A stretch of DNA of 64,000 bases, from the IMG/VR virus record IMGVR_UViG_3300038393_002515, one strand, 5' to 3'. Positions 1 to 56,578 of this stretch are shown here, one piece after another. The position numbers were made by a program, and so were the translations under genes. Source of the stretch: a virus. Every line of letters begins with the position of its first letter. The first letter of the stretch is position 1. The notes below the pieces were generated by a model. That model did not search any database, was not told the DNA's origin, and saw only the letters and a program-made list of their open reading frames with translations.

Positions 1-129
1 CGCACGGGCCCCTACGTCGCCCGCACCTGGGGCCTGCCCGACCTGCTCGCCACCCTCGCCCAGCGTGAGGGGATCACCGGCCCCCTCGACGTCCGCGAGA
101 CCGGCCGCGAGCGCCTCACCCGCCGCTGA
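1..129 (+). CDS. C-terminal fragment of a window-truncated hypothetical protein
   Basis: Frame 1 is open from the window edge to TGA 127-129. Third positions are mostly G/C. Followed by hairpin 138-166. Confidence 0.35.
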   Translation, partial: RTGPYVARTWGLPDLLATLAQREGITGPLDVRETGRERLTRR

Positions 130-137
130 CACACCCC

Positions 138-166
138 GGGGCGCTCCCGCCACCCGGGAGCGCCCC
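138..166 (+). terminator. Perfect 12-bp hairpin GGGGCGCTCCCG / CGGGAGCGCCCC with a 5-nt loop
   Basis: Inverted repeat read directly. The 3' arm is a variant of the CCCCAGGAGCGCCC box. There is no U-tract, so terminator function is uncertain. Confidence 0.4.
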
Positions 167-199
167 ACCCCCGCCGACCACCCGCCAGCACGCCAGACA

Positions 200-213
200 C
201 CCCAGGAGCGCCC
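200..213 (+). promoter_or_regulatory. Start-associated box CCCCAGGAGCGCCC (exact)
   Basis: The 14-mer contains GGAG and ends 3 nt before ATG 217. A CCCGCCAGC partner lies at 181-189. Confidence 0.6.
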
Positions 214-216
214 ACC

Positions 217-534
217 ATGACCACCACCGCCCCCGCCGTCCTCACCGCCGGACTCGCCATCACCGACGAGCACACCATCACCCGCATCACCGTCAAGCAC
301 GGGCACCGCGTCGTCGGCATCGTGGAGGGCAGCGACGAGCGCGGCTACGTGGCTGAGTACTGGTGGCCCGCCGTGAACGCGGACGGCAACTGGTACGGCC
401 CGTACGAAACCGAGCACTTCCCGCAGACGTTCGACGGCCCCCAGGGCCGCGCCAACGCCCTCGGCTGGCTCTCCGACGTGTTCAACGTCCGCCCCACCGG
501 CCGCGCCCTGGGAGCGCCCACCCTGACCCGCTGA
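217..534 (+). CDS. hypothetical protein (105 aa)
   Basis: The ATG follows the conserved box. Amino-acid composition is balanced, unlike the Arg/Pro/Gly-rich overlapping shadow ORFs. Confidence 0.65.
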   Translation: MTTTAPAVLTAGLAITDEHTITRITVKHGHRVVGIVEGSDERGYVAEYWWPAVNADGNWYGPYETEHFPQTFDGPQGRANALGWLSDVFNVRPTGRALGAPTLTR

Positions 535-605
535 ACGCCCCGCCACGGCCCGGCCGGACCACAACCCCGGCCGGGCCCCCACCGCCCGCCAGCCGCCCGC
601 ACAGA

Positions 606-619
606 CCCCAGGAGCGCCC
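606..619 (+). promoter_or_regulatory. Start-associated box CCCCAGGAGCGCCC (exact)
   Basis: Ends 3 nt before ATG 623. A CCCGCCAGC partner lies at 585-593. Confidence 0.6.
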
Positions 620-622
620 GCC

Positions 623-982
623 ATGCCGGTCACCTTCGGAGCCCCCACCGCCCCCACCGCCGACGACGACCAGCCGCGCCCCGTCCCTGTGGAGATCGTC
701 TGGATGCGCGCCGACGGCAACCGGCTCGGCGGCATGATCCAGCTCGGCCCCCTCCACCCCGCCGACATCGCCGCCGTGGAAGCCACCGGCAAGACCGACC
801 AGGCCCACATCACCGGCGGACGCCGCCGCACCACCCTGGACGCCTTCAGCGACTACGACCCCGCCGACACCTGGACCCTCACCCGCGCCACCCCCGAGCA
901 GGCCGCCCGCCACCTCGCCGACTGGCTCGGCCTCACCGGCCGCCCCGTCGCCCTCACCGTCATCGACGAGACCCGCATGTGA
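623..982 (+). CDS. hypothetical protein (119 aa)
   Basis: ATG after the conserved box, with coding-like composition. Confidence 0.65.
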   Translation: MPVTFGAPTAPTADDDQPRPVPVEIVWMRADGNRLGGMIQLGPLHPADIAAVEATGKTDQAHITGGRRRTTLDAFSDYDPADTWTLTRATPEQAARHLADWLGLTGRPVALTVIDETRM

Positions 983-994
983 GGCCCTGACAGC

Positions 995-1008
995 CCCCAG
1001 GAGCGCCC
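995..1008 (+). promoter_or_regulatory. Orphan copy of CCCCAGGAGCGCCC
   Basis: Exact 14-mer with no start codon within about 70 nt. A second copy in the same spacer lies at 1063-1076. Confidence 0.45.
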
Positions 1009-1062
1009 GGGGCCGCCCCCACGGCCCCGGCGCCCACCGACCACCCGCCAGCCCCGCACACA

Positions 1063-1076
1063 CCCCAGGAGCGCCC
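1063..1076 (+). promoter_or_regulatory. Start-associated box CCCCAGGAGCGCCC (exact)
   Basis: Ends 4 nt before ATG 1081. A CCCGCCAGC partner lies at 1044-1052. Confidence 0.6.
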
Positions 1077-1080
1077 CGCC

Positions 1081-1515
1081 ATGACCGACACCACCGCCAC
1101 CGCCACCCCCACCGCCGACGACGCCCCCGCCACCGGCCACCGCGTCACCTGGATGGACACCACCACCGGCCGCGTGTACTCCCGCGTCGTCCTCACCGAC
1201 CTGGAGGCGCTCCACATGATCGAGGCCGCCACCCTGTACGCCAACCTGGAGCCCCTCGGCTGCACCCCCGCCCCCGACTGGACCCGCTACGGCACCGGGC
1301 GCGCCCTGGCCGACGCCATCGCCGCCGGACGCGCCCGCCAGACCGCCGACCTGATCGCCGAATGGGAGCGCACCGCCCGCCCCTGGAGGCGCGCCAACAG
1401 CAACCTCACCGAGCGCCTCCAGGGCCACGCCCGCATCACCGGCGCCGCCATGCCCGACCCCGGCGACTGGGAGGCCGTCGCCGCCTACGTCACCGCCGCC
1501 CGCACCACCGCCTAG
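1081..1515 (+). CDS. hypothetical protein (144 aa)
   Basis: ATG after the conserved box, with coding-like composition. Confidence 0.65.
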   Translation: MTDTTATATPTADDAPATGHRVTWMDTTTGRVYSRVVLTDLEALHMIEAATLYANLEPLGCTPAPDWTRYGTGRALADAIAAGRARQTADLIAEWERTARPWRRANSNLTERLQGHARITGAAMPDPGDWEAVAAYVTAARTTA

Positions 1516-1529
1516 CCGCCCGCCAGCGC

Positions 1530-1543
1530 CCCCAGGAGCGCCC
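1530..1543 (+). promoter_or_regulatory. Orphan copy of CCCCAGGAGCGCCC
   Basis: Exact 14-mer at the start of the 240-nt spacer 1516-1756. A CCCGCCAGC partner lies at 1519-1527. Confidence 0.45.
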
Positions 1544-1607
1544 CGCACGCCCACACCGGGCCCGGGGCGCCCCCGACCCCCCGACGGCCCGCCAGCGCCC
1601 CGCCAGA

Positions 1608-1653
1608 CAGCGCGGAGCGCTGGCCCCCGGGACACCGTGGCGCGGAGCGCCAC
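1608..1653 (+). repeat. Two mini-hairpins with GGA loops (CAGCGC-GGA-GCGCTG at 1608-1622; GTGGCGC-GGA-GCGCCAC at 1637-1653)
   Basis: Read directly. Both embed GGAGCGC, the core of the start-associated box. Confidence 0.5.
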
Positions 1654-1756
1654 AGCCACCCGCCGCCGCGTAGCGGAGGAGCGCCGAGCCTGCGGAGCAG
1701 GCCGCGCGCCCAGGAGACACCCGACCACCCGCCCCGCCACACCAGGAGCGCGCGCC

Positions 1757-2269
1757 ATGGACTACACCCTGACCGTCACCCGGCCCGGCCAGCCCACCGA
1801 CCCCGACCCCCGCCACCACACCGACGCCACCGCCGCCCTGCTGATCACCACGGCGCTGCGCCAGGGGCTCACCCTCACCGCCGACGCCGACACCGGCCGG
1901 ATCACCCTCACCGACGACGGCCGCCGCGTCACCCTCACCCCCGCCGCGCCCCTGCCCGCCTGGACGACCGCGCAGCGCCGCGAGACGCTCGCCCTGGCCG
2001 CCAGCGACGAGCCCCTCGTGTGGCGCTACGGCCGCAGCAACGTCGCCCGCCTCGCCGACGGCCCCCGCTGGCTCACCCACTCCACCACCATGGCGCTCCT
2101 GCGCGGCGGCTACCTCACCGACCCCGCCCAGGGCGCGCCCCGCCTCACCCTGCTCGCGTACCTCACCCTCGGCACCCGCCCCAGCACCCGCCCCAAGGCC
2201 GTCCGCGACGAGGCCCTCGCCGCCATGCTCCGCAACGTCTACCGCCAGCCCACCCCCGCACCGGCCTGA
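1757..2269 (+). CDS. hypothetical protein (170 aa)
   Basis: ATG 1757 is preceded by CACCAGGAGCGCGCGCC. The upstream extension of track ORF 1637-2269 is Arg/Pro/Ala-rich and does not look coding. Confidence 0.6.
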   Translation: MDYTLTVTRPGQPTDPDPRHHTDATAALLITTALRQGLTLTADADTGRITLTDDGRRVTLTPAAPLPAWTTAQRRETLALAASDEPLVWRYGRSNVARLADGPRWLTHSTTMALLRGGYLTDPAQGAPRLTLLAYLTLGTRPSTRPKAVRDEALAAMLRNVYRQPTPAPA

Positions 2270-2358
2270 GCGCCCCGCCGCGCCCCGCCCACGACCCGGA
2301 CGGGGCGCAGCACCCCCGAACCCCCGACAGCCCGCCACACAGCCCCAGGAGCCCGCCC

Positions 2359-2685
2359 GTGCCCACCGCCCGAATCCTCATCCCCGCCGAGTACCTCGAC
2401 GCCCACCGCGCCGACCCGCACCCCGACATGCCCGCCGCCCTGCTGGCCCTCCTCGCCGACGCCGACACCATCGGCCCGGCCAGCAACCGCCGCGCCGTCG
2501 TCCACGTCCCCGCCGAACACCTGCCCGCCCTCGACGCCATCGCCCTCGCCCAGTTCACCGAGTGGGGCGACACCTACACCCGCCACCGCCGCAACATGCC
2601 CGCCGACGAGGCCGAGGCCCTGCGCCGCCTCTCCCGCGCCGCCTACCAGGTCCACCACCAGGCCCGCTACGCCGCCAACCGCTGA
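2359..2685 (+). CDS. hypothetical protein (108 aa)
   Basis: GTG 2359 is preceded by CCCCAGGAGCCCGCCC. Only the C-terminal part of track ORF 2020-2685 looks coding. Confidence 0.55.
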   Translation: MPTARILIPAEYLDAHRADPHPDMPAALLALLADADTIGPASNRRAVVHVPAEHLPALDAIALAQFTEWGDTYTRHRRNMPADEAEALRRLSRAAYQVHHQARYAANR

Positions 2686-2698
2686 CACCCGCCACACA

Positions 2699-2712
2699 CC
2701 CGAGGAGCGCCC
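2699..2712 (+). promoter_or_regulatory. Start-associated box variant CCCGAGGAGCGCCC (13/14)
   Basis: Ends 3 nt before ATG 2716. Confidence 0.5.
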
Positions 2713-2715
2713 CCG

Positions 2716-3135
2716 ATGACCCGCCCCGCCCGCCGCCCCGGCATCCACGCCAAGTGCGGCGCCACCGAACCCCGCCTCGGCTACACCCTCATGTGCGCCC
2801 GCTCCCCACAGCACATCCACAGCGCCGACCCCGAGCGCCGCAAGCACTACGACCCCGGCCACGAGGAGACGTGGACCGAGGAACGCCCCGCGCCGACCGG
2901 CATCCTGCCGCCGCCCGGCAAGACCTACGCCACCCGCCGCGTCACCGGCCGCCCCGGCTGGCACTGGGTGTACGACAGCGCCGGGAAGCTGCGCGCCATG
3001 GCCGAGCGCCGCCCCTCCTGGTGGCACCTGTACTGGGCCAGCGACGAGGAGCCCGGCGCGCACGGCGCGCCCCAGCGGTACGAGACCCTTGCCGACGGCG
3101 CCGACGCCTACACCTGCACGCCCGCCGACCAGTGA
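2716..3135 (+). CDS. hypothetical protein (139 aa)
   Basis: ATG after the box. Composition is Trp/His-rich and coding-like. Confidence 0.6.
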   Translation: MTRPARRPGIHAKCGATEPRLGYTLMCARSPQHIHSADPERRKHYDPGHEETWTEERPAPTGILPPPGKTYATRRVTGRPGWHWVYDSAGKLRAMAERRPSWWHLYWASDEEPGAHGAPQRYETLADGADAYTCTPADQ

Positions 3136-3204
3136 CCCGGAGCGCCCCGCCGACCGCCACGGCCGGGCGTAGCCTCACCCCGGGCCCGCCAGCCCGCCAA
3201 TACG

Positions 3205-3218
3205 CCCCAGGAGCAACC
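3205..3218 (+). promoter_or_regulatory. Start-associated box variant CCCCAGGAGCAACC (12/14)
   Basis: Ends 4 nt before ATG 3223. A CCCGCCAGC partner lies at 3185-3193. Confidence 0.45.
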
Positions 3219-3222
3219 CGCC

Positions 3223-3462
3223 ATGCCCCACCCCGACGACGAGACCGACGAGGAGCAGGCCCGCACCGCGCGGCTCCTGCGCATCCCGGCCGATCGGATC
3301 GCCTACTACAGCGCCGAGACCGTGTGCGCCTGGCTCCTCGCCCGCAACGAGCAGCACCGCACCCGACTGCGCGCCGCCTGCCAGGAGTTGCGGGCAGCGG
3401 CCGCCCAGGAGCGTTGCGCCCTTGCTGCGCTCTACCGCGCCACCGCCCAGGAGCGCCCCTGA
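3223..3462 (+). CDS. hypothetical protein (79 aa)
   Basis: ATG after the box. The stop overlaps the next start (TGATG). Confidence 0.6.
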   Translation: MPHPDDETDEEQARTARLLRIPADRIAYYSAETVCAWLLARNEQHRTRLRAACQELRAAAAQERCALAALYRATAQERP

Positions 3463-3773
3463 TGGCCGTCATCGACGGCCGCCAGAGCTGGCAGCGCCTG
3501 CGCCCCGCCACCCTCGCCCAGCTCGCCGCGACCATGACCGCCCCGGAGATCGCCGACATGTTCGGCGTCCCCCTGGGCACCGTCCGCTCGCGCCTCGCCG
3601 CCCACCGCATCACCGCCCGCTCCGCCCGCCCGGCAGCCAGCCCTCGGCCCGCCATCCCCCGATGCTCCGCCCCGCTCGCCCTCACCGGCGCACCCTGCGC
3701 CGCCCCGCTCGACCCCGACGGCTCGTGCCGCTGGGCTCACCAGCACACCGACCACACCGCCCAGGAGGCGTGA
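3462..3773 (+). CDS. small HTH DNA-binding protein (103 aa), sigma region-4 / LuxR-like helix-turn-helix
   Basis: The segment TAPEIADMFGVPLGTVRSRLAAHRI has the classic HTH pattern. ATG 3462 follows GCCCAGGAGCGCCC. The rest of the 403-aa track ORF 2562-3773 is compositional junk. Confidence 0.55.
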   Translation: MAVIDGRQSWQRLRPATLAQLAATMTAPEIADMFGVPLGTVRSRLAAHRITARSARPAASPRPAIPRCSAPLALTGAPCAAPLDPDGSCRWAHQHTDHTAQEA

Positions 3774-3777
3774 CCCC

Positions 3778-4167
3778 GTGAAGATCCGGATCACCCGTGC
3801 CGCCGCCGAGTTCACCGTGCGCGGCACGATCGGGCGCGGCCCGCACCTCGCCTACGGTCGCAACCTCGAACACACCATGACCGCCGAGGAGTTCACCGCC
3901 ACGGTGCGCCCCTGGGCCGACGGCGACGGCCCGGCCCGCTGGTCGGTGGCCACGCTCACCATCGAGGGCCGCGCGGTCGACGGCCGCCGCATCACCCCCG
4001 CATGGCAGGCCCGGGGGTTCTACTCCCCACTCGAAGTCCCCGACGCCGACACGCCCGCATGGTTGCTCGACCTCGCCCGCGCCTGCCTGCCCGCCCAGGA
4101 CGCGCCCGCCGTCCCCGTGCGCCCGTTCACCATCCACGCCACGACCGCCCAGGAGCAGCCCCGATGA
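3778..4167 (+). CDS. hypothetical protein (129 aa)
   Basis: GTG start 9 nt after AGGAGG. Stop and next start overlap as ATGA. Confidence 0.6.
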   Translation: MKIRITRAAAEFTVRGTIGRGPHLAYGRNLEHTMTAEEFTATVRPWADGDGPARWSVATLTIEGRAVDGRRITPAWQARGFYSPLEVPDADTPAWLLDLARACLPAQDAPAVPVRPFTIHATTAQEQPR

Positions 4168-4568
4168 ACCGCGACGACATGGCCGCCGTGCGCGCCACCG
4201 CCGACCGCCGCGAGGCCGAGTACCGCGCCCACTTCGACGGCTGCCCCGACTGCCCCGGCAGCCCGGACGGCGAGTGCGCCCGCGCCCAGGAGCTGTACCG
4301 CGCCTGGACCGCCGCCCGGGAACTCTCCACCCTCCGCTGCCAGCCCGGCCAGGACCAGCCGCAGGAGCACCCGCGCCCGCCGCACGACCTCATGGCCACC
4401 ATCGCTGCCGCCGAGACCGAACACGCCCGGCTGGTCGCCCTCCTCATCGCCGGAGGCCAGACCAAGGAGGCTGCCTGGCAAGCCGTCGACCGCCTGATCA
4501 TCGCTCTGCGCGACGCCGATGACGCTCGCGCGCTGATCGCCGCCAAGGCTCCCCGGGAGCAGCCGTGA
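4164..4568 (+). CDS. hypothetical protein (134 aa) with a CPDCPGSPDGEC motif
   Basis: ATG 4164 follows CCCAGGAGCAGCCCC. Only this part of track ORF 4002-4568 looks coding. Confidence 0.6.
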   Translation: MNRDDMAAVRATADRREAEYRAHFDGCPDCPGSPDGECARAQELYRAWTAARELSTLRCQPGQDQPQEHPRPPHDLMATIAAAETEHARLVALLIAGGQTKEAAWQAVDRLIIALRDADDARALIAAKAPREQP

Positions 4569-5005
4569 CCGTCCAGCCGCCCGCGCCGCGCCCCTGCGCC
4601 TCCTGCCCGTACCGCACCGACGTCCCGGCGGGCGTCTGGGCCGCCAGCGAGTACGCCAAGCTCGGCGCCTACGACGAGCCGACCCACCTGCAGCCCGCCG
4701 GTCTCTTCCTGTGCCACCAGACCGACCACGACGACGAGCGCGCCCGGGTGTGCTCGGGCTGGGCCGGATGCCACGACATGGACGAGAGCATGGCGCTGCG
4801 CGTCGCCGCCGTCTCCGGTGAGATCAGCGCCGAGGCCGTCCAGACGGTCCGCGACTACGTCTCGCCGGTGCCGCTGTTCGCCTCCGGCACCCAGGCCGCC
4901 GCCCACGGCATGAGCGGCATCGAGGAGCCCGGCGAGGACGCCCGGCGGGTGATTCGGAAGATCGAACGCACCCGAACCGACCTCACTACTGGCAAGGAGG
5001 GCTGA
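4565..5005 (+). CDS. Cys-rich hypothetical protein (146 aa)
   Basis: Starts at a GTGA overlap with the upstream stop. Contains CASCPYR ... LFLCHQ ... CSGWAGCH, a putative metal-binding pattern. Confidence 0.6.
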   Translation: MTVQPPAPRPCASCPYRTDVPAGVWAASEYAKLGAYDEPTHLQPAGLFLCHQTDHDDERARVCSGWAGCHDMDESMALRVAAVSGEISAEAVQTVRDYVSPVPLFASGTQAAAHGMSGIEEPGEDARRVIRKIERTRTDLTTGKEG

Positions 5006-5006
5006 G

Positions 5007-5204
5007 ATGGGACGCGGGAAGCCGCGCGTGAGCAACGCCGCCGTGCAGACGCGCAAGGCCGTCCTGGACGCGCTGCAGGCGGGCAAGCCGCTGACCGAAC
5101 CGGAGGCGCGCGCCCTGGTGGAGGAGCTGGAGCGCGAGTACCGGCACTCCGGATGGAGCGAGGGCTACGACGAGGGCCACCACGACGGGACCTGGCAGGA
5201 CTGA
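5007..5204 (+). CDS. hypothetical protein (65 aa)
   Basis: ATG 8 nt after AAGGAGGG. Charged, helical composition. Confidence 0.55.
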   Translation: MGRGKPRVSNAAVQTRKAVLDALQAGKPLTEPEARALVEELEREYRHSGWSEGYDEGHHDGTWQD

Positions 5205-5227
5205 CCTGCGAAAACACAGGAATTCAC

Positions 5228-5276
5228 CGAACCCCACCCTAACGCAGCTATAGATGCGCTAGGGTGGGGTTCGTTG
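5228..5276. promoter_or_regulatory. P1: 19-bp inverted repeat (18/19) whose right arm is the conserved promoter-like element, with -10-like TAGGGT at 5260-5265
   Basis: CGAACCCCACCCTAACGCA (5228-5246) pairs with TGCGCTAGGGTGGGGTTCG (5255-5273). The left arm read on the minus strand is identical to the P2 core TGCGTTAGGGTGGGGTTCG. Confidence 0.55.
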
Positions 5277-5346
5277 GCAGCGAGACCGGGTGTCCGACCC
5301 GTCCTCTACGCTGCCCTCCACCACCCCGCCTAGGAGAACAAGACAC

Positions 5347-6225
5347 ATGGGACTCCCGAAGGTCGACGAGGCCACCACCATCGCCCTGGAAGCCATCCGC
5401 GACGCCGCCCCCGCCCTGCTCACCGTGACCGAGGTCTCCAAGAAGGTCGCCTCGGCCGCCGACGTCTCCGTCGGCACCGCCCGCAGCCGGGTGCGCGCCG
5501 CCTTCGAGGCGGGCGGGCTCCTCGAACTCAAGCCCTGGTCGCGGAAGTTCTTCATCGAGCTGCCCGGCGCGGAGGCCGCCGGTCTCGGCCCGTTCTACAT
5601 CGCCCGCGAGTGGACGGGGACCGGCCGCGAACACCGCCACGTGATCACCACCGACGACAGCGCGATGCGCCCCAGCTCCTACGGCCCCGGCAACACCACG
5701 TACGTGGCCGACCCCGAGCAGATCCGCGAGTACGTCCAGCGGCTCACCGACGAGAAGAAGGCCAAGGAGGACGCCGAGGCCGAGGCTTGGAGGAACGACA
5801 GGAAGGCGCAGGTCAAGGAGATCGCCCGTCGCTTCCCCGGACTGCGCAAGGCGCTGCGCATGCTCGAACTTCTCGGCACCTTCGCCAACCCGACCGACGC
5901 GCACGGCTCCATGCTGACCGCCAGGGTGTACCTGGACACCTCCCGCCACCAGGCTCAGGACGCGCCGGTCTCCGAGCGGAACTCGAACATGGTGATCCAG
6001 GTGGAGGGTGACGAGAACGTGGGCATCCTGCAGACGATCCTGAGCGCCGGGCTCTCCTCCCTCCTCGCGGAACAGCCCGTCACCCACTGCAAGCACTGCT
6101 CGGGCCGCATCCTGTACGCCCAGGCCAGGTTCGGCACCGGCTGGTGGCACGTCGACACCACCAACGGCTCCTGCGGCGAGGACACCGACACCAAGGCCGA
6201 GCCCGCCGAGACCGAGGAGAACTGA
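5347..6225 (+). CDS. hypothetical protein (292 aa) with a C-terminal CxxC...WWH...C zinc-ribbon-like motif
   Basis: ATG 5347 lies 8 nt after AGGAGA. The C-terminus reads HCKHCSGRILYAQARFGTGWWHVDTTNGSC. GTG 5290 is an alternative start. Confidence 0.65.
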   Translation: MGLPKVDEATTIALEAIRDAAPALLTVTEVSKKVASAADVSVGTARSRVRAAFEAGGLLELKPWSRKFFIELPGAEAAGLGPFYIAREWTGTGREHRHVITTDDSAMRPSSYGPGNTTYVADPEQIREYVQRLTDEKKAKEDAEAEAWRNDRKAQVKEIARRFPGLRKALRMLELLGTFANPTDAHGSMLTARVYLDTSRHQAQDAPVSERNSNMVIQVEGDENVGILQTILSAGLSSLLAEQPVTHCKHCSGRILYAQARFGTGWWHVDTTNGSCGEDTDTKAEPAETEEN

Positions 6226-6228
6226 CCC

Positions 6229-6660
6229 ATGCGCACGTCCGCCACCTGCCCCGGCTGCAGGCAGTACCCCGTCACCGTCACGCCGACCGGCGCGCTGCGC
6301 GCCCACGACTCCGGCAACGGCATCCCGTGCCCCGGCAAGGGCTTCCGCCTCGACCAGCCCATCTACCCGCAGCTCATCAAGCTGTGGGGCTGGGAGACCG
6401 GCCAGAAGCTCATGAAGCAGGAGTTCCCCGAGTGGGTGTCGCCGATGGACAGCGGCCCGCACCCTATCGGCACCCTGCAGAAGCTGGTCCTCAAGGCGTA
6501 CCCCAGCGCTGACGCCTTCGGGTACACCAGCGGCCGGGGCATCACCTTCTGCGTCAGCAAGCGCTGGTACTTCGCCACGCCGGACGGCCACGTCGGCGAG
6601 AAGTACCCCACCCGCGTCGCCGCCGCCGACGCCGCCGACGAGTACCTCAAGGAGAAGTGA
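6229..6660 (+). CDS. hypothetical protein (143 aa) with an N-terminal CPxC...RAH...CP zinc-ribbon-like motif
   Basis: The motif TCPGCRQYPVTVTPTGALRAHDSGNGIPCPGKG is shared with the 13637-14227 product. Confidence 0.65.
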   Translation: MRTSATCPGCRQYPVTVTPTGALRAHDSGNGIPCPGKGFRLDQPIYPQLIKLWGWETGQKLMKQEFPEWVSPMDSGPHPIGTLQKLVLKAYPSADAFGYTSGRGITFCVSKRWYFATPDGHVGEKYPTRVAAADAADEYLKEK

Positions 6661-6662
6661 TC

Positions 6663-7019
6663 ATGGACGACAACCGCCTGCACTCCGACGAGGACCGCGA
6701 GGACCGCGAGGACGCCCTGCCCAAGTGGGCGCAGCTCAAGCTCGACCTGTACCGGCGGCGCCTCACCGACGAGCGGAAGATCAACGCCGAGCTCAGCGGT
6801 GACGTCGAGGAGAGCGACACCCTCATCCGGTGGCACGGCATCCGCGCCGACCACCTGCTGCCCCGCCGCGCCGAGATCACCTTCCTCCCCGACCTCACCC
6901 GCCCGGACCACGCGATCGACTGCACCATGCGCGACGGCGTGCTGCGCGTCCACGGCAGCAGGACCCTGGTCATCAAGCCGAGCGTGACCAACGCCCTCAC
7001 CATCGAGCTGGAGAAGTGA
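6663..7019 (+). CDS. hypothetical protein (118 aa)
   Basis: ATG lies in the conserved junction GGAGAAGTGATCATG. Confidence 0.6.
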   Translation: MDDNRLHSDEDREDREDALPKWAQLKLDLYRRRLTDERKINAELSGDVEESDTLIRWHGIRADHLLPRRAEITFLPDLTRPDHAIDCTMRDGVLRVHGSRTLVIKPSVTNALTIELEK

Positions 7020-7021
7020 TC

Positions 7022-7261
7022 ATGGCCGACGACTTCGCCCCGCGCGCCGCTGCCGATGTCACCGACGAACTCGTCCAACAGGCCCTCGGCATCGTGGAGG
7101 GCTGGTACGACGAGGGCCCGATCGACTGGGAGGACGTCTGGGACCGGCTGGAGCGCCGCGTCCTCGACGACGGCCGGGGCATCGACCTTGGCGAGGACCT
7201 CGGCTCGCCCGCCCTCAAGGCCCTCCAGCGCCGCGTGCGCGCCGCCCGCAAGGAGAACTGA
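7022..7261 (+). CDS. hypothetical acidic protein (79 aa)
   Basis: ATG lies in the identical junction GGAGAAGTGATCATG. Only the 3' part of track ORF 6830-7261 looks coding. Confidence 0.6.
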   Translation: MADDFAPRAAADVTDELVQQALGIVEGWYDEGPIDWEDVWDRLERRVLDDGRGIDLGEDLGSPALKALQRRVRAARKEN

Positions 7262-7263
7262 TC

Positions 7264-7551
7264 ATGTCGTTCAGCATGAGCACCCGCCGGGACGGGCGGC
7301 TGGGAGCCAAGACCGGTGCGCAGCCGGTCACGGTGTGGGGGTCCGACGCGGACGGCGGGGAGGACGGTCTGCCGGTCGTCGTCGCCCGTGGCTCGGTCCG
7401 CGTTCACCGCGACGGCCCCGAACTGTGCACCGTCACGACCCCTGAGGGCGTGATGTTCGAGGCCGCCGAGACGTCCTGGGCGCCGCTGCGCGGCGAGTGG
7501 ACGATCGAGGCCCGCAGGATCGATCCGGCCCCGGGGAGTCCCGGTGAGTGA
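7264..7551 (+). CDS. hypothetical protein (95 aa)
   Basis: ATG lies in the junction GGAGAACTGATCATG. Confidence 0.55.
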   Translation: MSFSMSTRRDGRLGAKTGAQPVTVWGSDADGGEDGLPVVVARGSVRVHRDGPELCTVTTPEGVMFEAAETSWAPLRGEWTIEARRIDPAPGSPGE

Positions 7552-7771
7552 GCCCAGGATCATCCAGCCGGTCAGGCCGACCCGGCCGAGCTACAGTCTG
7601 CGGGAGGCCGAGTTGCTGATGCGGATTCTCCTGAGCAGCGGGCATCCGCAGGCCGAGCATCTGGTCACCAAGCTGGTCACCGCCGCTGAACAGCCCGGGG
7701 CGTACATAGAGTTGATGGAGCGTGTGCGGGCCTCGGTCATCTTGAATCACGAAGGGCCTCGCACCCCGTAG
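7544..7771 (+). CDS. hypothetical protein (75 aa)
   Basis: GTG start overlaps the upstream gene end. Coding-like composition. Confidence 0.5.
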   Translation: MSEPRIIQPVRPTRPSYSLREAELLMRILLSSGHPQAEHLVTKLVTAAEQPGAYIELMERVRASVILNHEGPRTP

Positions 7772-7808
7772 ACACGCATCTATGTGTGCGTTAGGGTGGG
7801 GTTCGTTC
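7769..7808 (+). promoter_or_regulatory. P2: sigma-70/HrdB-like promoter, -35 TAGACA (7769-7774), 17-nt spacer, -10 TAGGGT (7792-7797)
   Basis: Geometry read directly. The 33-nt GCATCTATGTGTGCGTTAGGGTGGGGTTCGTTC is conserved with P1, P3 and P4. Confidence 0.6.
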
Positions 7809-7885
7809 TCAGGTGCTCAGGCCCGCCAGCCGGGCACCTGGTGACACCACCACCAGCCTCGACCCGCCACGAGGAGAACCTCACC

Positions 7886-8089
7886 ATGCCCATGCGTGAC
7901 TTCCTGGGCTTCCTGCCCATACTCCCGTCCGCGCTGACGCCCGCCGTCTGGCTGTGGCTGCACCACCACTACGCCGACACGCCCCAGGGCCGCGCCCTGT
8001 GCAGCAACCTGACCGTCCTGTACCTGGTCCTCACCGTCATCCTGGCCCTCGTCGGCCGCGCCTGGTCGGCCCCGAGGAGCGAGCGGTGA
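7886..8089 (+). CDS. small membrane protein (67 aa, 2 predicted TM)
   Basis: ATG follows GAGGAGAA. Hydrophobic segments are FLGFLPILPSALTPAVWLWL and LTVLYLVLTVILALVG. Confidence 0.6.
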   Translation: MPMRDFLGFLPILPSALTPAVWLWLHHHYADTPQGRALCSNLTVLYLVLTVILALVGRAWSAPRSER

Positions 8090-9217: not shown

Positions 9218-9335
9218 CGCCCGGTCCGCCCCGCCTGTACCACGGGGCCTCGGGATTCACCATCCGGGGCGGACACCATGCGCGCCGCCGCTACGGTGCG
9301 CAGCAGCAACACCCGTATCCCAAGGGGGGATTCAC

Positions 9336-11892: not shown

Positions 11893-11932
11893 TAGACATG
11901 CATCTATGGATACGTTAGGGTGAGATTCACCG
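11893..11932 (+). promoter_or_regulatory. P3: -35 TAGACA (11893-11898), 17-nt spacer, -10 TAGGGT (11916-11921)
   Basis: Same architecture and sequence family as P2 (CGTAGACAyGCATCTATG...CGTTAGGGTG). Confidence 0.6.
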
Positions 11933-13578: not shown

Positions 13579-13611
13579 GCATCCATAGATGCGTTAGGGT
13601 GAGAGTTGTTG
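13579..13611 (+). promoter_or_regulatory. P4: conserved element GCATCCATAGATGCGTTAGGGTGAGAGTTGTTG, -10-like TAGGGT at 13595-13600
   Basis: Contains the near-palindrome GCATCCATAGATGC. The -35 position (ACCCCT) is poor. Confidence 0.5.
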
Positions 13612-25790: not shown

Positions 25791-25831
25791 CTGTGGCGGC
25801 TCGTCCACCCCCAAGGGGTGAGCCACCACAG
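25791..25831 (+). promoter_or_regulatory. Late motif copy: 12-bp hairpin (11/12) CTGTGGCGGCTC/GAGCCACCACAG enclosing CCAAGGGGTGA (25811-25821)
   Basis: Read directly. The 3' arm abuts the SD GGAGGA of ATG 25840. Confidence 0.6.
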
Positions 25832-25839
25832 GAGGATTC

Positions 25840-28005
25840 ATGGCACAGCGGGGCGCCAGCGGGCCGAACTACGAGGGCGAGCAGTCGCGGATCGACCGCC
25901 TGTTCCGTCGCTTCTCGTCGCGGCCGGGCGAGTCGGGTGAAGAGGCCGAGATGCGCGCCAACCGGCGCGTGGCCCGGCGCAAGACCGCTGCGGCCGGATT
26001 CACCGGCGGCGGCCATGCCGGTCCAGCGGTGGACTTCGCCACGGTCCGGCCCCGCGACCCGCTGTTCTACTGGCGGCAGAACAACCTGCCGTTCCAGTTC
26101 GACGACCCCGCGCAGATGCAGAAGATGCGGGCGTACTGCCGACTTCTTTACATCTCGCACCCGCTGGTCGGCTCCTGCGTCGACATCTACTCGAAGTACC
26201 CGCTGCTCGGGCTGAAGATGACCTGCAAGGACGAGCGGCTCACCGAGTTCTACACCGACCACTTCCTCTCCGAGGACGGCCTGGACTACCAGAAGTTCCT
26301 GCCCAAGCTGGGCCGGGAGTACTGGACGGTCGGCGAGGCGTGGCCGCTGGGCACCTTCAACGAGGACCTCGGCGTGTGGGACACCGAGGAGCTGCTCAAC
26401 CCCGACGACGTCGAGGTGCAGCCCTCCCCGTTCCTGCGCGAGCCGAGGTTCCTGATCCGGCTGCCGCAGAACATGAAGGAACTCATCCGCACCCGGCAGC
26501 CCGCCTGGGAGTACGAGAAGCTGATCACGGCGTACCCGGAGCTGACGTACTACGCCGATGACAACGCCCTCATGCCGGTGTCGAACATCCTGCTGCGGCA
26601 GATGAAGTTCGAGGCCGACAACTTCAACCCCCGGGGCATCCCCCTGCTGTACCGCGCGATGCGGTCGCTGATGCAGGAGGAGATGCTCAACGCGGCCGTC
26701 GACTCCATCGCCGACCGGCTCTACACGCCGCTCATCCACGCCAAGCTCGGCGCCTCTGCCTCGGACCTGGGCACGAACGTGCCGTGGATTCCGACCCTGG
26801 ACGACCTCGCCGACTTCGAGGAGGCCGTGGACGCTGCCCTGGCGGGCGACTTCCGCATCATCATGACCCACTTCGCGGTCCAGATGGAGTCGGTGCTGGG
26901 CAAGGAGGACATCCCCGACCTCACGGGCGACTTCGACCGGATCGAGGGCCGGGTCCTGCAGACCTTCGGTCTGTCCAAGACGATGCTGGCCGGTGCGTCC
27001 TCCGGTGAGACGTACGCGGCCGACGCCCTCAACCGCGACCTGGTCACGCAGATGCTGACCAGTTACCAGAACCTGATCTCCTCCCACTACCGCCAGCGCG
27101 CCCTCGTCGTTGCCGAGGCCCAGGAGCACTTCGACTACGAAGAGCGCAACGGCAAGCGGTACGTGAAGATGGAGGAGATCTACGAGGTCGACGAGGAGAC
27201 CGGCGAGGGCCGGATCGTCGAGCAGCCCAAGCTCCTCATCCCCGACCTGCAGTTCAAGACGATGAGCCTCCAGGACGAGGCCGCGCAGAACGAGTTCTTC
27301 GAGGCCCTGCGCGAGGCCGGTGTCCCGATCTCGGTCAAGACCCGCCTGCACAACGTCAACATCGACTTCGACGAGGAGATCGAGAAGTCGCGCGACGAGG
27401 CCGTCGAGATGGCGGTCGCCGAACAGGAGACCCGCAAGGCCATCTACATCGCGCTCAAGGACAAGGGCCTGCCGATCCCGCAGGACCTGCGCTCTGACTT
27501 CGAGCCGCGCGCCCTGCCCGAGGATCAGGACCCGAACCAGATGCCGACGGCTCCGTCGCGCATCCCGATCCTCGGCATGGACCCGGTCACCTCGCAGCCC
27601 ACGCTCGCGCCGACCATGCAGGACCTGACCTCGATCCCGCCGGACGGCGGCGTGGCCATGCCTGGCGGCGTGCCGGAGCCGGTCGACGCCGACCAGGGCG
27701 AGGGCGAGCAGCGGCCGGACGAGTCCGACGAGGCGCGAGGCGACATGCCCAAGGAGTCCTCGCTGATCCCGTACCCCCGGCCGCGCCTGGACGACGCCAC
27801 AGGCCTGTTCCAGAACCACGAGCGGATGAAGGCGCTGGCCGACGAGCACCGGCCCAAGGTCCTGGTGCCCGTCGCCCAGGAGGGCGCGGAAAAGCCCGAG
27901 GCGATCCAGCGCAAGCAGGCCGTCGGCCTCTACCAGGGCCCGCGCCACCTCGGCATGCGCCGCCACATCCAGGAGGACGAGATCAACAAGGAGTTGCAGG
28001 CATGA
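25840..28005 (+). CDS. portal protein (721 aa)
   Basis: Size, position next to morphogenesis genes, acidic C-terminus and overall sequence resemble tailed-phage portal families. Called by recognition only, with no search run. Confidence 0.6.
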   Translation: MAQRGASGPNYEGEQSRIDRLFRRFSSRPGESGEEAEMRANRRVARRKTAAAGFTGGGHAGPAVDFATVRPRDPLFYWRQNNLPFQFDDPAQMQKMRAYCRLLYISHPLVGSCVDIYSKYPLLGLKMTCKDERLTEFYTDHFLSEDGLDYQKFLPKLGREYWTVGEAWPLGTFNEDLGVWDTEELLNPDDVEVQPSPFLREPRFLIRLPQNMKELIRTRQPAWEYEKLITAYPELTYYADDNALMPVSNILLRQMKFEADNFNPRGIPLLYRAMRSLMQEEMLNAAVDSIADRLYTPLIHAKLGASASDLGTNVPWIPTLDDLADFEEAVDAALAGDFRIIMTHFAVQMESVLGKEDIPDLTGDFDRIEGRVLQTFGLSKTMLAGASSGETYAADALNRDLVTQMLTSYQNLISSHYRQRALVVAEAQEHFDYEERNGKRYVKMEEIYEVDEETGEGRIVEQPKLLIPDLQFKTMSLQDEAAQNEFFEALREAGVPISVKTRLHNVNIDFDEEIEKSRDEAVEMAVAEQETRKAIYIALKDKGLPIPQDLRSDFEPRALPEDQDPNQMPTAPSRIPILGMDPVTSQPTLAPTMQDLTSIPPDGGVAMPGGVPEPVDADQGEGEQRPDESDEARGDMPKESSLIPYPRPRLDDATGLFQNHERMKALADEHRPKVLVPVAQEGAEKPEAIQRKQAVGLYQGPRHLGMRRHIQEDEINKELQA

Positions 28006-55031: not shown

Positions 55032-55051
55032 CGACGCGACTGGTGGGTGGC

Positions 55052-56578
55052 ATGCCCGACATCTCTTCTGCGACGTACACGCCGCCCGGCGTGTACGTCA
55101 GCGACGAATCGACTCCCACGGTCACCCCGCGCGGTGTGTCGACCACGACCGTCACGGTGATCGGCCCGGCCCTGGGCTACCAGACGACCAGCGAGGTCGT
55201 CACCGTCAACTCCGCCTCGGCGACCGCGCTGTCGCAGCGCGGCGTGTACACCACGGCCGTCGTGGGCCCGCCTGCCATCGCGGCGCCCGTGGTCACGACC
55301 CTGTCGGGCACGGCCATGGTCTACAACACCGACTACACCTTCGTGGTGACCGCCGGTTCCGGCGGTGCGGCGACGGCGGTCACCTCGATCAAGCGGCTGT
55401 CGGCCAGCCAGAGTGACCTGACCCAGCCGTCGCCGAACGGTCTGAAGGACGGCGACCAGGTCCGGGTGACGTACGCGTTCACCAACGCGACGTACTACGA
55501 GCCGACCGAGTTCGAGGACTACGACCAGATCGTGGCCACGTACGGGCAGGCGATGGTGACGACCGCGCCGACGAGCCCGACCGCGTCGCAGGTCGCCTCG
55601 GCGCTGACGCTGGCGGCGAAGATCGCCCTGGAGAACGGCGCGGCCAGCGTCCTGTGCGTCGCCACCAACCCGTCGGCCGGGGACTACAGGGCGCAGCTGC
55701 AGGCGGCGTACAGCAAGCTGGAGGCGGACTACCGGGCGCAGATCCTGGTGCCGCTGTTCGTGGACGGTGCGTACAACGCGCACACGCCGACGAACGTGGC
55801 GAACCTGCTGGCCGACGTCAAGAATCACTGCGAGACGGCGGCGGCCGACGGCTACGGGCGCCTGGCGTTCACCGGCCTGGCCACGAACTACGACAACACG
55901 GTCGGTCACGACCAGCTGGCGCTGGCGCAGGCCAGCAAGCGGCTGGTGCTGTGTTACCCGAACCGGCTGTTGGCCTTCAACTCGGCTGTGAACGCCTCTA
56001 CGGAGGTCGACGGCTTCTACCTGGCCGCCGCGATGGCCGGGCGTCTGGCGCGGAACGCGGTCGCGCGTGGGCTGACGAACCAGTCGCTGACGTCGTTCAC
56101 CGGTCTGCCCGCGACGATCGCGCAGGCCATGACCCGGACCTTCCGTAACAACCTGTCGAAGTCCGGTGTGAACGTCGCGGAGATCAACCAGAACGGCCAG
56201 CTGGTCGCCCGGCACGGCGTCTCGACGAACATGTCGTCGATCCTGACGCAGGAGATCTCGCTGACCCGGATCGGCGACGTCCTGCTGCAGATGATCCAGG
56301 TCGGCATGTCCAACGCCGGGCTGATCGGTGAGCCGATCACGGCCGAGACAACGATCAACGTGAAGTCGGCGCTGATCGGCCTGCTGGAGCAGGCGGTCTC
56401 CGACTCGATCATCGTCTCCTACGCGAACGCGCAGGTGCGGCAGCAGTCGGCGGACCCCTCGGTGATCGAGGGGACCTTCAGCTACAAGCCCCCGATCCCG
56501 ATGAACTACGTCGTCGTGAAGTTCGCCGTCGACCTGACAACCGGCGACACGACCACGGAGACGGACCAGAACGCCTGA
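55052..56578 (+). CDS. contractile tail sheath protein (508 aa)
   Basis: The N-terminus ATYTPPGVYVSDES is the typical sheath PGVY motif. Size fits and it is followed by tube and chaperone genes. GTG 55043 is an alternative start. Confidence 0.8.
   Translation: MPDISSATYTPPGVYVSDESTPTVTPRGVSTTTVTVIGPALGYQTTSEVVTVNSASATALSQRGVYTTAVVGPPAIAAPVVTTLSGTAMVYNTDYTFVVTAGSGGAATAVTSIKRLSASQSDLTQPSPNGLKDGDQVRVTYAFTNATYYEPTEFEDYDQIVATYGQAMVTTAPTSPTASQVASALTLAAKIALENGAASVLCVATNPSAGDYRAQLQAAYSKLEADYRAQILVPLFVDGAYNAHTPTNVANLLADVKNHCETAAADGYGRLAFTGLATNYDNTVGHDQLALAQASKRLVLCYPNRLLAFNSAVNASTEVDGFYLAAAMAGRLARNAVARGLTNQSLTSFTGLPATIAQAMTRTFRNNLSKSGVNVAEINQNGQLVARHGVSTNMSSILTQEISLTRIGDVLLQMIQVGMSNAGLIGEPITAETTINVKSALIGLLEQAVSDSIIVSYANAQVRQQSADPSVIEGTFSYKPPIPMNYVVVKFAVDLTTGDTTTETDQNA

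Follow-up and report, generated by a model that had tools for sequence, protein, structure and literature searches.

We describe a conserved 14-mer, CCCCAGGAGCGCCC, that stands just ahead of the start codons of most genes in a block of small tandem genes at the left end of a 64,000-nucleotide stretch of viral DNA (IMG/VR record IMGVR_UViG_3300038393_002515; the whole stretch is referred to below as the window). The conservation of the 14-mer is confirmed. On balance, we read the module built around it as a translation-initiation leader of the start-associated sequence (SAS) type, which would serve promoterless ORFan cassettes lying on a polycistronic mRNA. The block (positions 1–5204) is presumed to be early. 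A first-pass annotation of this DNA had proposed an SAS-like system distinct in sequence from that of the Cluster K mycobacteriophages, and the analysis bears this out: the sites have one orientation and an AGGAG core, precede unrelated genes and share only AGGAG with the Cluster K element.

Exact copies of CCCCAGGAGCGCCC lie at 200, 606, 995, 1063 and 1530, the five positions originally listed, all on the + strand; whole-window shuffles lead one to expect 0.02. The first 5 kb are extreme in composition (GC 75–79% versus 65–70% elsewhere; C 48%, G 29%, A 15% and T 8.6% in 1–5204), and the statistics were therefore repeated with block-only and spacer-only shuffles. When only the C-rich block is shuffled, with dinucleotides preserved, 0.00 exact copies are expected against the five observed, 0.06 against seven at ≤1 mismatch and 0.82 (shuffle maximum 5) against 13 at ≤2 mismatches. 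When each spacer is shuffled separately, 0.00 is expected against the five exact copies, and 0.46 against ten. The near copies lie at 1740 (two mismatches), 2343 (two), 2699 (one), 3205 (two), 3445 (one) and 4147 (three). Four of these had been placed correctly, two had been placed one nucleotide off (1741 and 4148), and a seventh, at 3757, is weak, its 3' half being unmatched. Copies beyond the earlier list are found at 4551 (three mismatches), at 152 (the 3' arm of a hairpin) and within genes at 506 and 4359.

Genes were called by GC content at third codon positions (GC3), which yields 12 tandem + strand genes identical to the independent calls in database contigs. At ten of the 12 the motif ends 0–4 nt ahead of the ATG or GTG (gaps of 3, 3, 4, 3, 2, 3, 4, 3, 3 and 0 nt for the starts at 217, 623, 1081, 1757, 2359, 2716, 3223, 3462, 4164 and 4565), so the placement a few nucleotides before start codons stands as first claimed. 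The copies that are not at block starts are two orphans, one hairpin arm and two intragenic matches; all copies of the 14-mer in the block are on the transcribed (+) strand. Duplication of paralogous gene starts, raised at the outset as a source of the repeats, is rejected, as an all-against-all BLASTP of 13 proteins returns no pair below E = 0.01. No Pfam family is recognized among the block genes except DUF6283 (g11) and a sub-threshold helix-turn-helix (HTH) match (g8). ATG starts make up 31/41 (76%) of block genes and 43/62 (69%) of other window genes, which is no clear excess.

The motif is confined to the left end, as had been suspected for 0–5 kb; the region covered is the 64-kb window plus 10 kb to its left, out of a genome of ~155 kb. 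No gene start beyond 4.6 kb in the window carries the motif, those of the portal, sheath and other structural genes included. Outside 1–4600 the window holds three matches at ≤2 mismatches (22959 on the – strand, 52397 on the + strand and 52741 on the – strand), none of them at a gene start. A trans-acting anti-SAS RNA was considered and rejected; the only minus-strand candidates are two 2-mismatch matches, both inside + strand genes.

Related loci were collected by scanning IMG/VR with the 14-mer and then by protein-based searches. The resulting set of six comprises the window locus, represented also by L136 (the same phage, with one mismatch in 10.5 kb, which supplies the 10 kb to the left), and L124, L126, L127, L128 and L092; the relatives with a syntenic block are thus four further genomes of ~155 kb (or fragments of such) and one further fragment, L092. 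Their proteins have diverged to 55–60% amino acid identity. The comparison with related phages that had been called for shows the module recurring in at least five related genomes and the leader conserved ahead of 28 gene families: 42 block starts give the consensus CCC-A-GGAG-C-G-C-C-C, in which AGGAG is invariant, the flanking C positions are C in 78–90%, A at –1 is kept in 76% and G at +5 in 52%. GGAG lies 8–9 nt from the start in 28 of the 42, and about 25 starts across the family have the 14-mer at ≤2 mismatches. The 118 other genes of the same loci have ~0 bit of information in these flanks and a spacing mode of 6 nt. Between genomes, spacer segments keep 74–92% identity and are thus no less conserved than the genes, with 69–82%. 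The flanks CCCC/CGCCC are not complementary to the 3' end of 16S rRNA (...GAUCACCUCCUUUCU), here the textbook actinobacterial sequence, which may differ from that of the host. The claim that conservation extends beyond the Shine–Dalgarno (SD) sequence holds in part: the flanks are conserved in the 42 starts, and some of their apparent conservation is mere C-richness.

The 14-mer is part of a larger unit. A gapped alignment of 37 family leaders gives GCCCGCCACA-N2-3-CCCCAGGAGCGCCC-N2-4-ATG, ~30 nt in all, often with a second CCCGCCAG just 5' of it. The 9-mer CCCGCCAGC is present in the block at the six positions first noted (181, 585, 1044, 1519, 1588 and 3185), where local shuffles lead one to expect 0.70 copies. 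As a bare 6-mer, CCCGCC is frequent there, with 58 occurrences in 5.3 kb, so only the longer box is informative. An upstream partner of the kind found in extended start-associated sequences (ESAS) had been suggested. The partner is instead a non-palindromic CCCGCC(AGC)/GCCCGCCACA box, which also opens the leaders of the promoter-driven genes upstream of the block. The leader makes up the 3' half of an intergenic repeat module of ~84–88 nt, which runs from the stop codon through ~10 nt, a GC hairpin of 10–17 bp and a ~45-nt unstructured, almost T-free leader to the ATG. Across the six loci, 29 of 31 long T-poor spacers share this stem layout between stop and next start, with stems of 10–17 GC base pairs in at least 12 different sequences, loops of ~8 nt, and median positions that put the stem start 10 nt past the stop codon and its end 45 nt ahead of the ATG. 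In the window the spacers measure 87, 88, 98, 241, 89, 30 and 87 nt. A short type of 30–40 nt has the leader without hairpin and occurs in the relatives as well, at lengths of 36–40 nt. Genes in the block's right half overlap (ATGA, GTGA), with the motif placed in the last codons of the upstream gene (..TAQERP*, ..REQP*). By RNA folding the hairpins have an unpaired probability near zero and the leader is mostly ≥0.9 unpaired, the 5' half of the SAS included. Two stems contain G–T pairs, that is G–U in the + strand RNA and C–A on the other strand, a slight hint that pairing may matter at the RNA level. A search of Rfam at E ≤ 1 returned only a far-sub-threshold miRNA match, on the palindrome at 5250. 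The features of the block are as follows.

217–534, 623–982, 1081–1515, 1757–2269, 2359–2685, 2716–3135, 3223–3462, 3462–3773, 3778–4167, 4164–4568, 4565–5005 and 5007–5204, + strand: the 12 genes, g1 to g12.
1–129, + strand: 3' end of the last promoter-driven large gene before the block (485 aa), equal to L136 gene 8456–9913, which has a TTGAC...TAGGGT promoter-like site and a CCCGCC leader upstream.
138–166, + strand: post-stop hairpin GGGGCGCTCCCG/CGGGAGCGCCCC with, as first described, a perfect 12-bp stem (138–149/155–166; 5-nt loop) and an SAS-like 3' arm (152–165, two mismatches); a like design is found at L126 9321 and L092 11549.
181–213, + strand: g1 leader with CCCGCCAGC (181–189) and exact SAS (200–213) before ATG 217, predicted mostly unpaired.
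217–534, + strand: g1, 105 aa, GC3 0.96, without family or Pfam match; also called in database contigs.
547–577, + strand: post-stop hairpin of 11 bp.
585–619, + strand: g2 leader with CCCGCCAGC (585–593) and exact SAS (606–619) before ATG 623.
623–982, + strand: g2, 119 aa; family present in five related genomes, with different neighbours each time.
995–1033, + strand: orphan exact SAS (995–1008) fused to a 12-bp hairpin (1003–1015/1022–1033), the GCGCC of the SAS 3' half forming the base of the 5' arm; the combination recurs beside other genes at L124 9551, L127 9904 and L128 9895.
1044–1076, + strand: g3 leader with CCCGCCAGC (1044–1052) and exact SAS (1063–1076) before ATG 1081; this region is 84% identical to 163–213 across 51 nt (repeat family D4).
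1081–1515, + strand: g3, 144 aa; no homologue was found in the relatives.
1516–1756, + strand: long spacer of 241 nt with CCCGCCAGC at 1519 and 1588 and an orphan exact SAS at 1530–1543; GGAGCGCCCCG (1535–1545) pairs with CGGGGCGCCCC (1563–1573), the folding z-score is –3.6, and the spacer ends in a leader with SAS variant CACCAGGAGCGCGC (1740–1753) ahead of ATG 1757.
1757–2269, + strand: g4, 170 aa; its L126 homologue has a different downstream neighbour.
2277–2311, + strand: post-stop hairpin GCCGCGCCCCGCC/GGACGGGGCGCAGC, near-identical in L126 and L124, preceded in L124 by an unrelated gene.
2331–2356, + strand: g5 leader, CCCGCCACACAG and SAS variant CCCCAGGAGCCCGC (2343–2356) before GTG 2359.
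2359–2685, + strand: g5, 108 aa.
2686–2715, + strand: short hairpin-less spacer, CACCCGCCACACA and SAS variant CCCGAGGAGCGCCC (2699–2712) before ATG 2716.
2716–3135, + strand: g6, 139 aa; homologue at L124 11631.
3134–3170, + strand: degenerate orphan SAS GACCCGGAGCGCCC (3134–3147) with a 10-bp hairpin (3142–3152/3160–3170).
3185–3218, + strand: g7 leader, CCCGCCAGCCCGCC and SAS variant CCCCAGGAGCAACC (3205–3218) before ATG 3223.
3223–3462, + strand: g7, 79 aa, whose last codons (..TAQERP*) encode the g8 SAS.
3445–3458, + strand: SAS variant GCCCAGGAGCGCCC within the g7 coding sequence, 3 nt ahead of the g8 ATG 3462.
3462–3773, + strand: g8, 103 aa, with a weak HTH (sigma-70 region 4-like) match below the Pfam cut-off.
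3759–3767, + strand: weak copy, GCCCAGGAG alone, before GTG 3778 (g9, 3778–4167).
4147–4160, + strand: SAS variant GCCCAGGAGCAGCC at the 3' end of g9, 3 nt ahead of ATG 4164 (g10, 4164–4568).
4551–4564, + strand: SAS variant CCCCGGGAGCAGCC at the 3' end of g10, abutting GTG 4565 (g11, DUF6283, 4565–5005).
5221–5280, no strand assigned: right block boundary, a 44-nt near-perfect palindrome GAACCCCACCCTA-ACGCAGCTATAGATGCGC-TAGGGTGGGGTTC at which the next transcription unit begins.

Downstream of g11, g12 (5007–5204) has an ordinary AAGGAGG site. In the relatives, three different genes upstream of the counterpart of 4551–4564 end in ..(Q/R)EQP* and so encode this SAS; at overlapping junctions there, unrelated upstream genes arrive at ..QERP* or ..QEQP* ends. 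The 241-nt spacer also contains, between 1591 and 1711, three to four small hairpins of the GCGC-GGA-GCGC type (CAGCGC-GGA-GCGCTG, GTGGCGC-GGA-GCGCCAC and GCCTGC-GGA-GCAGGC); no counterpart of 1606–1732 was found in the relatives. The HTH match of g8 has an E-value of about 2e-4 and is the sole hint of nucleic acid binding among the block proteins. Full SAS-like sites with an in-frame ATG occur inside large early genes (..PQEAPTM.., ..REERPAM..; L136 8678–8698, L092 4366–4388, L128 2525–2547) and could be internal starts giving C-terminal isoforms.

The two orphans at 995 and 1530 are startless, as first reported: no ATG, GTG or TTG follows them, and each is the 5' arm of a hairpin. Such orphans recur in the family, where 8 of the 31 long spacers have a full SAS 5–12 nt past the stop that forms a hairpin 5' arm. 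In some of these hairpins the 3' arm is the exact complement of the SAS, down to the rare T facing the A of GGAG (GGAGCGCCCCG/CGGGGCGCTCC). Three spacers, that at 138–166 among them, have the reversed arrangement with an SAS-like 3' arm. The orphans keep the full 14-mer, with its unpaired CCCCCA, ahead of three different hairpin continuations. At 3134–3147 the SAS has decayed; the same position in L124 is a working SAS that overlaps the ATG of another gene. The simplest account is that the gene between an SAS and the next hairpin was lost or replaced, after which pairing with a G-rich arm was selected or tolerated; the hairpin-sequestered copies may also have a function of their own.

No sigma-70-like promoter or U-tailed terminator was detected in 1–5204 by a promoter/terminator scan, which gave no promoter-like site in 1–8000. 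The spacers hold 9 T in 725 nt (1.2% T; 54% C), so a –10 element of the form TANNNT is impossible there. This T-poverty is the local background of sites that have no T-requiring signal: third codon positions in the block are likewise only 1.4% T (73% C, versus 54% C in the rest of the window), and the idea that T-free spacers are special in themselves was rejected on this ground. What it shows is that no T-requiring signal (–10 element, NTG or stop codon) is maintained in the spacers, and the informative point is the absence of promoter elements. In the block proteins Ala, Arg, Thr and Pro are abundant and Lys and Phe nearly absent; the strand composition could stem from codon optimization, from a link to Rho or from selection for mRNA that is C-rich and unstructured.

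A regular promoter-like site is found only outside the block: TTGAC(T/C) and TAGGGT stand 19 nt apart, with the palindrome GCATC-N4-GATGC between them. Five such sites precede large genes to the left of the window (L136 about 1260, 3375, 5455, 6990 and 8415), and four lie in the window (5244–5265, 7776–7797, 11900–11921 and 13579–13600). The palindrome between –35 and –10 resembles an operator for a dimeric regulator. In the promoter-driven units the CCCGCC box follows TAGGGT by 6–9 nt, approximately at the transcript start, and an AGGAG site comes 20–30 nt later. The block leaders thus resemble the standard 5' leader of the family without its promoter, at whose place they have a hairpin. On each strand the palindrome at 5221–5280 carries a –10-like TAGGGT hexamer. 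It may act as a promoter in both directions, as a terminator or in both capacities, and its minus-strand hexamer would direct antisense RNA into the block.

Further right the 14-mer is replaced by other motifs, as had been anticipated. Between 6.2 and 7.3 kb, AAGGAGAACTGAYC-ATG occurs at 6214–6231, 6649–6665, 7008–7024 and 7250–7266, and is conserved in relatives (L124 16.3–17.3 kb, L126 15.7–16.2 kb). Structural genes, among them those of portal and sheath, are preceded at 15–40 nt by CCAAGGGGTGA, a candidate late-gene promoter or regulatory motif with 11 copies against 1.0 expected, ten of them on the + strand (exact at 25811, 30930, 31919, 53302 and 55013; one mismatch at 9320, 32353, 45877, 47690 and 51853).

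According to the model that we propose, the 14-mer would be the ribosome-binding core of the ~30-nt leader and would act in cis at each promoterless small gene. The probable entry point for transcription is the promoter-like TTGAC...TAGGGT site of the large gene ending at 1–129, from which the mRNA would extend across 12 genes or more as far as the palindrome near 5250. Behind each of the first genes, ~10 nt past the stop codon, the RNA would form a GC hairpin of very high stability. The next ~45 nt, being C-rich, G-poor and essentially U-free, should be unable to fold and offer no alternative NTG start, and would leave AGGAG exposed 8–9 nt before the start codon; at overlapping genes the site would be written into the last codons of the upstream gene. 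We infer that the leader works at the RNA level through the 30S subunit. A role in translation is the one we lean towards, given the strict strand, the fixed distance to the start, the persistence in coding ends, the unstructured NTG-free context beside very stable hairpins and the lack of promoters. A rather doubtful further step is that more than the anti-SD recognizes the non-SD positions, namely A at –1, CGCCC at +1 to +5 and the two boxes CACA and CCCGCC; a shared factor of phage or host, which would control the whole block jointly, is one example.

Several observations weigh against a translation leader. The motif is not always kept within a gene family, the g2 homologues in L127 and L128 having CTGGAG variants. 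The orphans (two exact ones in the window, and 8 of 31 long spacers), startless and sequestered in hairpins, are unexplained by a pure ribosome-binding site (RBS) model. Strong hairpins within an operon could terminate transcription, and internal promoters, none of which is visible here, would then be needed. Across the 42 family-wide sites the flank information is only ~0.3–0.6 bit per position relative to spacer composition. Whole-spacer minimum free energy z-scores fall below –2.8 in only three of seven spacers, because shuffles of such GC-rich sequence fold too; the evidence for the hairpins therefore consists of perfect stems and constant position.

The main rival explanation, tentative and compatible with a translation leader, is recombination history: the modules would be homology patches for the exchange, deletion and insertion of single-gene cassettes, only AGGAG would be needed functionally, the 14-mer would look conserved as modules were copied and spread with the cassettes, and the orphans, which keep it ahead of different hairpin continuations, would be scars of gene loss. 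The block is a scrambled array of single-gene cassettes. In five genomes the g2 family has five left and five right neighbours, all different, and g4, g5, g6, DUF6283 and several families absent from the window are also permuted gene by gene. In L126 and, as a near-identical version, in the window, hairpin GCTGCGCCCCGCCCACGACCCGGACGGGGCGCAGC comes after g4; in L124 the gene before it is unrelated, and all three have different genes downstream. In the window g2 is followed by an SAS-GGGGCCG hairpin module, which in L127 and L128 precedes g2 instead. Whole spacers form repeat families (84 nt, D1; 51 nt, D4), and the decayed SAS at 3134–3147 stands where L124 has a working one leading into another gene. 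On the other side, homology requires neither a single orientation nor a 0–4-nt distance to the start nor re-creation of the motif in coding ends. Leaders are hardly more alike within genomes than between them (identity 0.536 versus 0.524; permutation p = 0.13), so genome-specific homogenization by gene conversion or a co-evolving factor is not significant; the figures argue against strong gene conversion or genome-specific co-evolution and do not separate the translation and recombination models. GCGCCCC direct repeats flanking each ORF are not significantly enriched either (18 versus 10.2 expected, shuffle maximum 19), and neither recombinant junctions nor circles were observed in this analysis of sequence. 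A stronger form, which we regard as unlikely, is that the hairpin-plus-leader module may be a dedicated cassette junction and not only an RBS, with SAS-derived repeats bracketing each ORF for precise excision, insertion or template switching; it is suggested by the SAS-containing 5' arms (8 of 31) and SAS-like 3' arms (three), some of which face an exactly complementary arm (GGAGCGCCCC/GGGGCGCTCC). If true, the junction would be a promoter-less, integrase-less analogue, in Streptomyces phages, of promoter-early stem-loop (PeSL) mini-circles and integron cassettes, and a factor recognizing this sequence in the mRNA, to control the whole ORFan set, might be linked to it.

That the 14-mer acts on DNA or in transcription, as a promoter for a phage RNA polymerase or sigma factor, a stoperator-like repressor site or a nut/put-like antitermination signal, seems to us quite improbable. 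The CCCGCC box does follow TAGGGT by 6–9 nt in every promoter-driven gene upstream of the block, the six or seven strong in-operon hairpins would make antitermination or re-initiation convenient, g8 has its weak HTH match, and single-orientation asymmetric sites are typical of Cluster A stoperators too, as far as these are cited in PMC3203893. Against this, the SAS is locked to the start codon and not to the upstream box, from which its spacing varies by 10–20 nt, it persists at overlapping junctions that have no spacer, and the hairpins lack U-tracts and need not be terminators. No RNA polymerase or sigma gene was recognized among the large ORFs tested. The large myovirus group nearest by portal relies on the host RNA polymerase, which also counts against a site of this kind. 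To an ordinary Shine–Dalgarno sequence made conspicuous by a C-rich region we give almost no weight. The composition that would favour it is real (48% C in the block, 54% in the spacers, 73% at third codon positions), and codon bias by itself would put the internal coding copies of the family in the CCC-CAG-GAG (P-Q-E) frame, where 34 of 34 are found; but local dinucleotide shuffles never reach the observed counts, which refutes it for exact and near-exact copies, conservation extends to positions other than C (A at –1, G at +5 and the CACA box), and other genes of the same genomes lack the flanks. A composition artefact is thus ruled out by the local and spacer-only shuffles and still explains part of the flank 'conservation'. 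Given the same 34/34 frame bias, in-frame GPQERP/QGPQE linkers in large early proteins are no evidence for fossils of fused spacers, a reading that was rejected; many of these copies, moreover, lie in homologous proteins.

The phage of the window is large and tailed and encodes a portal protein (25840–28005), a tail sheath (55043–56578) and a beta-helix tail-fibre-like protein. Its portal is just 37–40% identical to those of Rhodococcus phage E3, large Gordonia phages and Cluster C mycobacteriophages. Its nearest relatives by portal are large myoviruses, and its genome of ~155 kb is myovirus-like. Among deposited phages, near or distant, no DNA match to the left 6 kb was found except for the DUF6283 gene. 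The same phage is represented by a 155,050-bp metagenomic contig and about 19 other contigs, and g2 is carried exactly by at least 19 metagenomic contigs. A member of the family is present as a whole 156,949-bp contig within the assembly of Streptomyces sp. MH60, so a Streptomyces-type host is likely.

The closest known system is the SAS of Cluster K mycobacteriophages (Pope et al., 2011; PMC3203893), a 13-bp asymmetric repeat (GGGATAGGAGCCC) present in about 11–19 copies with ≤2 deviations, 3–7 nt from predicted starts and with a strong ATG preference. About half of these SASs have an ESAS upstream, paired imperfect 17-bp inverted repeats with a consensus sequence and a 4–13-bp spacer, whose mismatches argue against RNA pairing (PMC3203893); SAS function was still experimentally unverified in a 2025 survey of 188 Cluster K genomes (PMC12699233). 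Both systems consist of a 13–14-nt asymmetric AGGAG repeat in one orientation a few nucleotides before starts, apparently conserved (judged here on the textbook sequence) beyond the positions that pair with 16S rRNA, in ~10–20 copies at non-structural genes only, ahead of unrelated gene families, kept across related phages and associated with an upstream element. They differ in that only AGGAG is shared, the flanks being C-runs here (CCCC/CGCCC) and GGG...CCC there; in phage and host (a Streptomyces-type host and a ~155-kb myovirus-like genome as against a ~60-kb temperate siphovirus); and in the lack of a clear ATG excess, the clustering of the copies in one 4.5-kb cassette array and the recurrent hairpin-built orphans found here. 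Unlike ESAS, the partner is the non-palindromic GCCCGCCACA/CCCGCCAGC box (CCCGCC/CACA), and the inverted repeats are perfect 10–17-bp stems of at least 12 sequences, ~45 nt upstream. Microbacterium Cluster EF phages have motifs resembling SAS and ESAS (GGGAAAGGACCCC, about ten per genome, the upstream partner being weak and centred on GTAGAG; PMC7302621) and are an independent case among actinobacteriophages of an over-conserved RBS motif with an upstream partner; the sequence is another one, and neither a hairpin module nor cassette scrambling is described there. Cluster A stoperators, repressor-binding DNA sites of 13–14 bp (as cited in PMC3203893), are likewise numerous, asymmetric, in one orientation relative to transcription and in short intergenic gaps; as presented there, they are not tied to a start distance and have no SD, and no repressor or lysogeny module is evident here.

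For the context of scrambled cassettes, the PeSLs of T4-type phages come nearest; a strong sigma-70 promoter defines that module, termination at its stem-loops has been demonstrated and mini-circles have been detected physically (Arbiol et al., 2010, PMC2839356; Comeau et al., 2014, PMC4122927). Common to both are repeated intergenic modules between ORFans, which for PeSLs lie in the hyperplastic early region of a large myovirus, the layout of stop codon, stem-loop, SD and start (29/31 long spacers here), and relatives that differ by single-gene insertion, deletion or replacement, with breakpoints blurred here by the 55–60% amino acid identity. Here the spacers have 1.2% T and no promoter-like site, the conserved part is the RBS leader, and the hairpins are predictions. 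In integron arrays, promoterless cassettes of one ORF each line up in a single orientation behind a promoter, with an imperfect or variable inverted repeat after every ORF and a scrambled order. The block resembles them in its promoterless one-orientation single-ORF cassettes, the hairpin after the ORF and the order scrambled between relatives; its T-free hairpins cannot hold the attC core GTTRRRY, its conserved element precedes the ORF and is an RBS, and no integrase was recognized among the genes flanking the array. The module would therefore best be filed with the SAS kind, in a PeSL-like evolutionary context, and would be a third, sequence-unrelated SAS-like instance in a different phage type and host genus. 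It points to over-conserved ribosome-site leaders as a device in general use among the non-structural genes of actinobacteriophages and not as an oddity of Cluster K, and links the SAS, known since 2011, to single-gene cassette scrambling and so to how phages acquire and test ORFan genes. With about a dozen copies in 4.5 kb, no promoters between them, a defined hairpin partner, natural orphan and degenerate variants, and related genomes that place the same leader ahead of different genes, it is also an experimentally clean case of the SAS kind.

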